Positions 52,615 through 52,901 of a stretch of 64,000 bases of DNA are shown here, in pieces. The DNA is from an uncultured Acidobacteriota bacterium (lineage in GTDB: Bacteria; Acidobacteriota; UBA6911): contig CAWJKZ010000010.1 of the NCBI GenBank assembly GCA_963843575.1, positions 448,001 through 512,000 of the forward strand, given 5' to 3'. The notes under the pieces are model-generated. The model ran no database searches and was not told the DNA's origin. It saw only the letters and a program-made list of their open reading frames with translations. Each line of letters begins with the position of its first letter. The stretch's first letter is position 1. Made by a program: the position numbers and the translations under genes.

Positions 52615-52798
52615 CTGGGTTTCTCCTGGATTGAGTTTGCCCGCCGCCCCGAGGCGGCTGGGACAATCGAGCCCCGTCGAACAAGCTCGGGCTGGGAGCA
52701 TGGAATAGTAACGAGCCAGGTTGGCGGGGAAACAACCTACGCCTGCTGGAATGGGCCGTGGTGCCGGACGCGGGCCAGATATTCTGAGGCAAGGCGGG

Positions 52799-52834
52799 TT
52801 ATTGTCCCCGCCCGGGACAACAGCATAAGTGCAT
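52799..52834 (-). CDS. Candidate leader peptide [11 protein letters not shown] upstream of metY-metA
   Basis: ATG CAC TTA TGC TGT TGT CCC GGG CGG GGA CAA TAA, about 30 nt after the predicted transcription start. Confidence 0.55.
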
Positions 52835-52872
52835 GATGATCGCTCAATCCGCAATTCTAAAGAACTTGGCGG

Positions 52873-52901
52873 ATTGTACGTGCAGGGGGTCCCGTTGTCA
52901 A
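52873..52901 (-). promoter_or_regulatory. Sigma70 promoter of leader-metY-metA
   Basis: TTGACA (52901-52896), 17-nt spacer, TACAAT (52878-52873). Confidence 0.8.

Follow-up and report, generated by a model that had tools for sequence, protein, structure and literature searches.

An operon of metY and metA lies on the minus strand of a 64,000-nucleotide (nt) stretch of DNA, hereafter the window, taken from contig CAWJKZ010000010.1 of an uncultured Acidobacteriota bacterium. It is preceded by a leader in which a short upstream open reading frame (uORF) carries three consecutive cysteine codons, and an earlier note on this DNA had proposed that this leader is a cysteine-sensing attenuator. In what follows, G000 is the source genome of the window, G001 is its single congener, and g1, g2, g4 and g10 are the genera that were compared; coordinates at the locus refer to the minus strand of the window unless stated otherwise. 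The proposed layout (promoter, uORF, 184-nt leader, AGGAG and metY) was recovered with every part in its place, and Pfam matches bear out the identities given to the two genes. The principal parts are:

52896..52901, minus strand: -35 hexamer TTGACA, from the promoter scan, invariant in G001

52873..52878, minus strand: -10 hexamer TACAAT, from the promoter scan, invariant in G001

52799..52834, minus strand: uORF of 11 codons plus stop, ATG CAC TTA TGC TGT TGT CCC GGG CGG GGA CAA TAA

52817..52825, minus strand: three consecutive Cys codons TGC-TGT-TGT (codons 4-6), the proposed sensor, invariant in G001

52623..52627, minus strand: metY Shine-Dalgarno (SD) sequence AGGAG, 8 nt ahead of the ATG at 52614

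51330..52614, minus strand: metY, O-acyl-homoserine sulfhydrylase family (PF01053)

50366..51295, minus strand: metA, homoserine O-acyltransferase (PF04204)

The two hexamers are separated by a 17-nt spacer, about half of whose positions differ in G001, and make up the sole promoter-like site between 52300 and 53300 (11 of 12 matches, with 0.2 expected from shuffles), a near-consensus promoter of the sigma-70 type. Transcription is predicted to start near 52866, which would give a 5' untranslated region (5'UTR) of about 32 nt; the end of the -10 box is 38 nt from the uORF ATG. The uORF, with its Cys-Cys-Cys run (CCC in one-letter amino acid code), lies downstream of this promoter, on the same strand as metY and 184 nt upstream; the leader that follows its stop leads to AGGAG and then to the metY ATG at 52614. 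The uORF lacks an SD, in agreement with the earlier description of its ribosome-binding site (RBS) as weak. As none of the other leader uORFs of the family has an SD either, this is no argument against translation. No terminator-like site was found in the same interval (0 versus 1.3 expected from shuffles) or in a separate scan of loci L006 and L007, and the claimed lack of a U-tract terminator therefore stands.

From the context of the genome and its family, we propose that the 11-codon uORF encodes a leader peptide through which the metY-metA operon senses cysteine. We put the probability of this at about 0.55, a figure that applies to the sensor role and not to the output. The sensor half of the original proposal is favoured by the retention of the uORF in G001, by two sister attenuators elsewhere in G000 and by Cys-rich leaders in other members of the family, while the switch half fared poorly when the leader was folded.

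DNA searches recovered the leader in two of the 137 genomes of the class, G000 and G001, and among 60 relatives in G001 alone, where it is 80% identical over the full query; in G000 it is single-copy. The order of a 341-amino acid (aa) gene, leader, metY and metA is common to both genomes. Columns identical between the two number 35/39 in the 5'UTR, 33/36 in the uORF, 49/60 in the 60 columns past the uORF (with 11 gap columns) and 25/27 in the segment comprising the pre-SD, SD and ATG, and 35/51 at the end of the upstream gene, 47/67 in the mid-leader and 18/40 in the last hairpin. With 82-92% identity in the 5'UTR, uORF and post-uORF tract versus 45-70% in the flanks, the leader is, by this comparison, under constraint. 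The G001 uORF keeps the Cys run; its CCC codon is changed synonymously to CCT, and a change of CAA to CGG replaces glutamine with arginine. Judged by eye, these three base changes retain the TTGTCCC/GGGACAA hairpin via G-U pairs.

Scans anchored on MetY gave no further leader homologues on genome contigs (80 loci, best 85% identity, all from other phyla or orders) or on metagenome contigs (79 loci, best 85%); because no MetY closer than 85% was available, no additional copies of the leader could be obtained. A homologue of the Cys uORF was found ahead of none of the MetY genes at 74 genome-contig loci (six of the 80 were dropped for want of a start codon). Some CC-containing short open reading frame (sORF) is present at 13 of these 74 loci, none of them homologous and several inside an upstream metA. 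For the refuting condition of the earlier note, lack of a Cys-rich uORF ahead of metY in relatives, the outcome is mixed: of the relatives, just the congener has the Cys uORF, and Met-rich uORFs, S-adenosylmethionine (SAM)-I riboswitches or nothing detected were seen in the others.

For G000 as a whole, genes were called crudely by the GC content of third codon positions (4271 genes, 73% coverage), and 3214 upstream regions (833 kb) were scanned for Cys-rich uORFs. Two ATG-started uORFs with a CCC run (ATG-CCC) were found, both in one divergent region (G000:C10:426789-427270) that is flanked by a sulfite/nitrite reductase gene (PF01077, PF03460) and a siroheme-synthase-like gene (PF13241, PF14824, PF10414). 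The metY uORF is absent from this list because the frameshifted metY call starts too far downstream. Candidates with GTG or TTG starts or with fewer Cys codons precede unrelated genes (SCO1/SenC, POR, protein kinase, HAD, DnaG, peptide deformylase and others), and none of the 13 annotated genes downstream of the 14 other Cys-rich candidates is a sulfur gene (the one set apart is a 102-aa open reading frame, ORF, at C14:139190).

A second scan covered the 1.8 Mb of uncalled G000 DNA for sORFs with an ATG start, at most 35 codons and three consecutive Cys codons. Fifteen were found, three of which, the metY uORF among them, stand directly ahead of sulfur genes. Three of the 12 others are antisense to long uncalled ORFs and one (MELCCC) is intergenic; each of the other eight either overlaps other ORFs or lacks a gene start on its own strand over the next 300 nt or so. 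The two closest genes on the downstream side encode a porin and a protein without a family, and to the extent that contexts were checked, no sulfur gene follows any of those sORFs that lie clear of long ORFs. The MELCCC sORF (6 codons, G000:C10:411461-411481) lies in AT-richer intergenic DNA beside a gene for an oxidoreductase with a twin-arginine translocation signal. Its own strand carries no gene for about 790 nt, and it is probably a chance occurrence.

These counts bear on a first rival explanation, in which the uORF is a chance occurrence in a conserved 5'UTR and the leader has a promoter, mRNA-stability or constitutive role and senses nothing. The 12 sORFs without a sulfur link speak for it, as do the presence of the leader in two genomes only and the ease with which GC-rich DNA yields pairings of G and C runs. 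However, such a uORF is expected by chance on the order of once in 1000 upstream regions (2/3214), and a sulfur gene follows each of the three ATG-CCC uORFs that stand ahead of any gene. Identity is moreover 90-92% in the uORF and 5'UTR, versus 45-70% in the flanks, and the homologous slot in relatives is occupied by a riboswitch or a leader peptide. We regard this explanation as decidedly unlikely.

The two uORFs of the divergent region belong to elements that were characterized further:

G000:C10:426859-427360 (locus L195:860-1400), outside the window: paired sister attenuators, back-to-back

Their uORF peptides are MTGFACCCICRVPGNRS.. on the reductase side and MICACCCTLRGFRVAEGAV on the siroheme synthase side. 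After the reductase-side uORF, MTGFACCCICRVPGNRSLVHETIEP and its stop, come a hairpin (about -30 kcal/mol) and a U tract, 4 nt from the reductase start; after MICACCCTLRGFRVAEGAV and its stop, a hairpin (-23 kcal/mol) and a U tract stand at 10 nt from the siroheme-synthase-like gene. Within each sister uORF, 9-15 nt past the Cys codons, there is a copy of the terminator 3' arm (GGGAACCGG; GGGTGGCGG), which is therefore able to pair with the 5' arm in the classical antiterminator design. To judge from these features, the two sister elements are textbook Cys-leader transcription attenuators. Both are kept in G001, and Rfam has no family for them. The match to the sulfite reductase in G001 contains one in-frame TGA. 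The metY uORF shares with the sister elements its ATG start, the absence of an SD, a CCC run that is followed by G/C-rich Pro, Gly and Arg codons, and a sulfur-related target.

Leaders of this type extend beyond the genus. Homologues of the sulfite reductase were found in 8 of the 41 genomes of the family (E <= 1e-80), and at seven of nine family loci the gene is preceded by a Cys-rich uORF (3-9 Cys) and a terminator (-19 to -34 kcal/mol). These seven are in G000, G001, G003, G008, G009, G011 and G032 (L210-L214 and L216 outside G000), and the other two loci lie within operons. No Cys leader was found in five named Acidobacteriota metagenome-assembled genomes (MAGs), whose sulfite reductases are just 35-41% identical.

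At metY itself, six loci of genus g10 (L010, L016, L021, L022, L025 and L026) have a Met-rich uORF followed by a terminator. The uORFs end in ..NMAMPMRGPSGLGGTLM before the stop, with variants ..CCMAMPMRF.. and MAMAMRGPTGGGGALM, in which CC or C stands beside the Met codons, and synonymous variation (GCC/GCG) is seen at the Ala codon that separates the Met codons. RNAalifold analysis of the six leaders paired the 3' half of the uORF with the terminator region, as in an antiterminator, and we consider these Met-rich leaders to be candidate methionine-sensing attenuators. The single loosely similar published proposal that was found is the Streptomyces lividans metL leader, as far as the accessible text of that report (PMC8079986) describes it. 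In G004 (L008), which has an orthologous metY-metA pair in the same order (MetY 72-75% and MetA 67% identical), the region between about 210 and 30 nt ahead of metY contains a leader uORF, MRQFCFYMVMRE.., in full MRQFCFYMVMREAGGCHRLGDA before its stop, and a U9 terminator, the 3' arm of which is mimicked by a G-rich stretch in the uORF. No such leader element was detected in these scans at the metY genes of genus g2.

Among the closest MetY homologues, which are from Chloroflexota, the slot ahead of metY holds a SAM-I riboswitch (RF00162) at 14 of 20 loci, directly upstream of metY at 11 and further upstream at three. SAM-I was also found in 7 of the 41 genomes of the window's family and in none of G000, G001, G004 and the nine g10 genomes searched. 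At L042, from a Chloroflexia MAG, the riboswitch precedes metA-metY, and an sORF (MMCMMCCLGSLYR and stop, with the ribosome-binding site GGAGAGAGGAG) lies between metA and metY, 63-105 nt ahead of metY. Compared with these loci, the metY leader of G000 occupies the same slot but has no aptamer, and its proposed signal is Cys-tRNA.

If the uORF does act as a sensor, a ribosome short of Cys-tRNA would pause on TGC-TGT-TGT and the pairing of the leader segments would shift, giving more full-length metY-metA mRNA or more translation of MetY; with plentiful cysteine, the ribosome would reach the uORF stop and expression would be damped. The segments that might take part in such a switch are listed below. 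The partner segments of the earlier note (GGCGGGGACAAT, TTGTCCC, CCCGCC, TTGTTTCCCCGCC and ATTGTCCC) all proved to lie where it had placed them.

52814..52820, minus strand: TTGTCCC, over the Cys-Pro codons

52801..52820, minus strand: segments 1 and 2, forming the hairpin TTGTCCC/GGGCG/GGGACAA inside the uORF

52801..52812, minus strand: GGCGGGGACAAT, on the 3' side of the Cys codons, inside the uORF

Segment 2: GGGCGGGGA, G-rich, pairing alternatively with CCCGCC or segment 3

52793..52798, minus strand: CCCGCC, directly after the uORF stop, the nearest partner of segment 2

52744..52798, minus strand: C-rich, G-poor tract from 1 nt past the uORF stop, a candidate Rho utilization (rut) site

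52716..52735, minus strand: segment 3, TTGTTTCCCCGCCAACCTGG, partner of segment 2 or segment 4

52723..52735, minus strand: TTGTTTCCCCGCC, a partner listed in the earlier note

52660..52667, minus strand: ATTGTCCC, at the base of the last hairpin

52639..52662, minus strand: last hairpin, segment 4 with its local partner CCCAGCCGCC, in G000 only

52639..52650, minus strand: segment 4, GGGGCGGCGGGC, with no U tract after it

52628..52635, minus strand: CTCAATCC, directly 5' of the SD, complement of GGATTGAG

52843..52850, minus strand: GGATTGAG, in the 5'UTR, perfect complement of CTCAATCC

The hairpin of segments 1 and 2 (1:2) has a predicted energy of -12.0 kcal/mol in G000 and -7.4 kcal/mol in G001, while pairing of segment 2 with CCCGCC is worth -14.4 kcal/mol in both genomes. 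The 2:3 duplex reaches -20.4 (G000) and -22.7 (G001) kcal/mol and the 3:4 duplex -20.5 and -21.9 kcal/mol. The duplexes persist in G001 despite differing flanks of segments 2, 3 and 4, and one pair of the 3:4 extension is changed on both sides. The two duplexes were jointly matched in 6/500 (G000) and 16/500 (G001) shuffles. Shuffle support for the alternative pairings is marginal overall. Of the mutually exclusive partners that had been claimed, the pairings themselves are present and kept in both genomes, but ATTGTCCC is not conserved and the stability of the pairings is marginal relative to shuffles.

Because there is neither a U-tract terminator nor a conserved anti-SD, a Rho-dependent output is preferred, in which termination would be loaded on the C-rich tract and set by the choice between 1:2 and 2:3; as a specific claim we hold this to be doubtful. 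Once translation of the uORF has terminated normally, hairpin 1:2 would hold segment 2 and the C-rich tract would stay open to Rho. Pausing on the Cys codons would place the ribosome over segment 1, leaving segment 2 to pair with CCCGCC or segment 3 and bury the tract. If the ribosome paused elsewhere than at the first Cys codon, the logic could be reversed, with 3:4 formed during the pause. The ratio of C to G is about 2.1 over the 60 nt after the uORF in G000 and G001, and the G000 rho gene is full-length (715 bits, cut-off 509); a C-rich, G-poor tract and a rho gene are necessary, but not sufficient, for a Rho-dependent leader attenuator. The model is patterned on E. coli tnaC and Salmonella mgtL/mgtA, at which a uORF is likewise followed by an unstructured C-rich tract, and the position of the ribosome decides the access of Rho. 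The signal read by TnaC, at its stop codon, is free tryptophan in the exit tunnel; that read by mgtL is proline or Mg2+.

Several results weigh against the reading set out so far. First, the leader as a whole does not fold better than expected: its minimum free energy (MFE) has a z score of -0.62, and 48 of 200 shuffles fold equally well or better, so that the earlier description of the leader as structured did not hold up. Among dinucleotide shuffles of the downstream leader, the 2:3 duplex was matched in 32/500 (G000) and 27/500 (G001), and the 3:4 duplex in 109/500 and 256/500, which makes the latter indistinguishable from chance. Neither ATTGTCCC nor the last hairpin is conserved in G001. 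Second, segment 2 starts 3 nt past the last Cys codon, so that with the ribosome paused at codon 5 or 6 a large part of the segment would be covered; the gap from the Cys codons to the segment is 9-15 nt in the sister attenuators, and here segment 2 would stay free only if the ribosome paused at the first Cys codon. Third, all other leader-peptide elements found in the family have a terminator and the metY leader does not, and the analogy with them thus covers the sensor but not the output. Fourth, with only two genomes, constraint on the uORF as a coding sequence is inseparable from plain nucleotide conservation, and its three substitutions are uninformative on coding. Finally, the choice of cysteine rather than methionine or SAM as the signal for metY-metA is by analogy only (both pathways draw on one supply of sulfide, and sulfite reductase would be regulated together with them).

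The fold predictions also speak to a second possibility, nested within the sensor reading, in which the uORF senses cysteine and the output is translational: leader structures would hinder the 30S subunit from reaching the metY start, a restriction that a paused ribosome would lift. The lack of a terminator in the metY leader fits such a mechanism, and there is a precedent in the studied mycobacterial Cys sORF Ms5788A, which, in the available part of its description, unmasks a downstream RBS (bioRxiv 10.1101/834739). A helix of 8 base pairs (bp) between GGATTGAG and CTCAATCC, both strands of which are invariant in G001 (-12.8 kcal/mol in G000, -13.9 kcal/mol in G001), reaches the SD and could stack on 3:4. 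However, an 8-bp match within 267 nt is near what chance would give for a leader of this length (roughly 0.5 expected by our own estimate). There is no conserved anti-SD, as the CUCC of G000 is missing from G001, and 184 nt separate the uORF from the SD. When a ribosome was placed as a mask over Cys codons 4-6 or the stop, accessibility of the metY SD was 0.61 in all states of G000 and 0.33-0.42 in G001, which we call unchanged; this result counts against a switch at the SD. A translational output is in our view decidedly unlikely.

A third alternative arises from a feature at the promoter:

52846..52875, minus strand: imperfect palindrome of 30 nt, AATCCGC-N16-GCGGATT, with an inner AGTTCT..AGAAyT repeat

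This palindrome extends from the -10 box to about +20, and its left arm lies upstream of the predicted transcription start and may accordingly act as DNA, perhaps as an operator, rather than as RNA. A regulatory leader with an incidental uORF would then be the explanation: a repressor would bind the palindrome at the -10 box and start site, or the conserved 5' half of the leader would be an RNA of undescribed type that binds a ligand or a protein. The arms AATCCGC/GCGGATT, perfect over 7 bp, 16 nt apart and overlapping the -10 box, are invariant in G001, where a single inner T/C change is found, and by our own estimate a repeat of this kind would arise here by chance with a probability of about 0.03. 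The left arm would be untranscribed, the conserved block reaches well past the uORF, and a conserved 7+7-bp inverted repeat in this position, which could be a protein operator, is a further point against the sensor reading. Yet there is no sign of a regulon: the palindrome has no second zero-mismatch copy in G000, its core at up to two mismatches occurs at scattered single sites only, with no copy at any other G000 gene, and four other conserved leader motifs are likewise without a second copy. An Rfam covariance scan (E up to 10) returned no match to the leader, T-box and SAM-I included, the lone match nearby being a 17-bit Chloroflexi-1 hit on the opposite strand inside metY (gathering score 80), and there is no excess of structure. 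Such a leader would also leave the Cys runs at metY and at two other sulfur loci unexplained. We consider it unlikely. G000 also contains two short repeat families, none of them in the window, with units of about 30 nt rich in GCGGAT/ATCCGC (56 and 71 pattern matches, both strands counted, often about 40 nt apart); these look like elements of the repetitive extragenic palindromic (REP) type or the miniature inverted-repeat transposable element (MITE) type.

Most documented cases of leader-peptide attenuation come from Proteobacteria, Actinobacteria and a few Firmicutes. Leaders with Cys codons are known from Actinobacteria (PMC1262725, bioRxiv 10.1101/834739) and from cysS of Rhodobacterales (PMC8632094), as far as the accessible text of these reports goes, and the comparisons that follow are limited to the same text. 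A full-text search of the literature, in which most subscription journals and supplements were outside the scope, found no such leaders described ahead of metY or in Acidobacteria.

A close parallel to the proposed sensor is the mycobacterial "Cys ribulon", in which polycysteine leaderless sORFs are Cys-responsive attenuators (Canestrari et al., Mol Microbiol 2020, bioRxiv 10.1101/834739). As described in the available part of that work, sORFs with consecutive Cys codons stand ahead of sulfur operons at several loci per genome, a terminator is not needed, and the signal is ribosome pausing on the Cys codons, as proposed for the metY leader. The two systems differ in host lineage and in their targets, which are cysteine-pathway genes in mycobacteria and metY-metA here. 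The mycobacterial sORFs are leaderless, whereas the metY uORF has a predicted 5'UTR of about 32 nt and, by eye, no -10-like hexamer 6-8 nt before its ATG. In mycobacteria the RBS is hidden by a duplex, and the paused ribosome blocks that duplex; none of this kind was found in the metY leader, where the RBS is 184 nt from the uORF.

Terminator-less Cys leaders have been described for cys operons and cbs of Actinobacteria, and a Rho-dependent output was proposed for them by analogy with tna (Seliverstov et al. 2005, PMC1262725). In the accessible text they share with the metY leader a Cys-codon run in a short ORF and the lack of a conserved terminator hairpin; their Cys run is near the stop, whereas that of the metY uORF occupies codons 4-6 of 11, and phylum and targets differ. 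The uORFC-8-2 motif upstream of cysS in Rhodobacterales, for which ribosome-mediated attenuation was proposed (Brewer et al. 2021, PMC8632094), likewise places a tandem-Cys uORF within a stem, but in the part of that report available it has an intrinsic terminator with a U run and a tRNA synthetase target, and is closer to the sulfite reductase and siroheme leaders of G000 than to the metY leader. The S. lividans metL leader (..ARCMCRRMCAF), predicted from RNA-seq and proposed to act upstream of metNIQ, resembles it in being a Cys/Met-codon leader ahead of a methionine-related operon, with no typical terminator according to the accessible text, and differs in being leaderless and in serving a transporter operon (PMC8079986). 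Within G000, the sister attenuators have an antiterminator copy and a U-tract terminator, whereas the metY leader has no U tract and no compact 3:4 hairpin. Taken as a sensor, the metY leader is most likely a new terminator-less variant of the Cys-sensing leader peptide.

The genes around the leader raise a few further points. Upstream of it on the same strand are genes for the 341-aa protein, which has no family, a GFO/IDH/MocA oxidoreductase and an M28 peptidase, assigned by Pfam. An opposite-strand ORF at 52474-52836 has no Pfam family and was not retained. An N-terminal extension of metY from TTG 52854, from which the frame is open, was also rejected, since indels between G000 and G001 (net -4 nt) break that frame and homologues share the annotated Met; the open frame at 52615-52854 also has an in-frame ATG 29 codons upstream of metY, and neither start is conserved in G001. 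MetY is 75-85% identical to Chloroflexota (Anaerolineae) proteins, MAGs of that phylum providing the closest homologues, and 50-59% identical to those of most members of its own family. For a fragment of RpoB, identity is 64% with two named Acidobacteriota MAGs and 63% with a Binatia MAG, and the alignment to two Chloroflexota genomes is just partial, from which it follows that G000 is not a Chloroflexota genome; the phylum is not settled by RpoB. These identities, which do not amount to a tree, fit an early entry of metY-metA into the g1/g4 branch by horizontal transfer.

The metY reading frame of the G000 assembly has at least two breaks between about 52365 and 52250, and no Logan contig of the organism from four DNA runs extends across them. 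The G001 metY is unbroken (428 aa), and in G000 the essential rpoB (G000:C24:252860-257103) is also split across several frames; the metY breaks are therefore most likely assembly indels rather than signs of a pseudogene, and the G000 assembly seems to contain frequent indel errors. For the leader, two 151-nt Logan contigs from DNA run X1 match 52529-52679 and 52679-52829 with zero differences and confirm the Cys codons, the uORF stop and most of the leader; a search for RNA runs covering window positions 52000-53100 returned none. As X1 is possibly the sample behind the window assembly, this is a check on the assembly and not an independent strain.

Considering all the loci together, we think it possible, with the odds somewhat against it, that this lineage runs much of its sulfur amino-acid control via ribosome-read leader peptides (a "sulfur ribulon") rather than riboswitches, and that metY-metA has exchanged a SAM-I riboswitch for a Cys-tRNA-sensing, Rho-coupled uORF. 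Such a set would comprise Cys leaders on sulfite reductase, siroheme synthase and, in this genus, metY-metA, and Met leaders (..MAMPM.., ..YMVM..) on metY in sister genera, the least precedented part of which would be the Met-codon attenuators of a methionine biosynthesis gene. If this is true, an uncultured soil and sediment lineage would use the ribosome as a sensor of both sulfur amino acids, and its metY would be a natural case of a leader peptide taking over the slot of a riboswitch. A terminator-less Cys leader could then be compared with terminator-bearing sisters in the same cell, and direct sulfhydrylation by MetY would be tied to cysteine status instead of SAM. For annotation, leader uORFs of this kind would be unannotated regulatory genes that are predictable from sequence alone.

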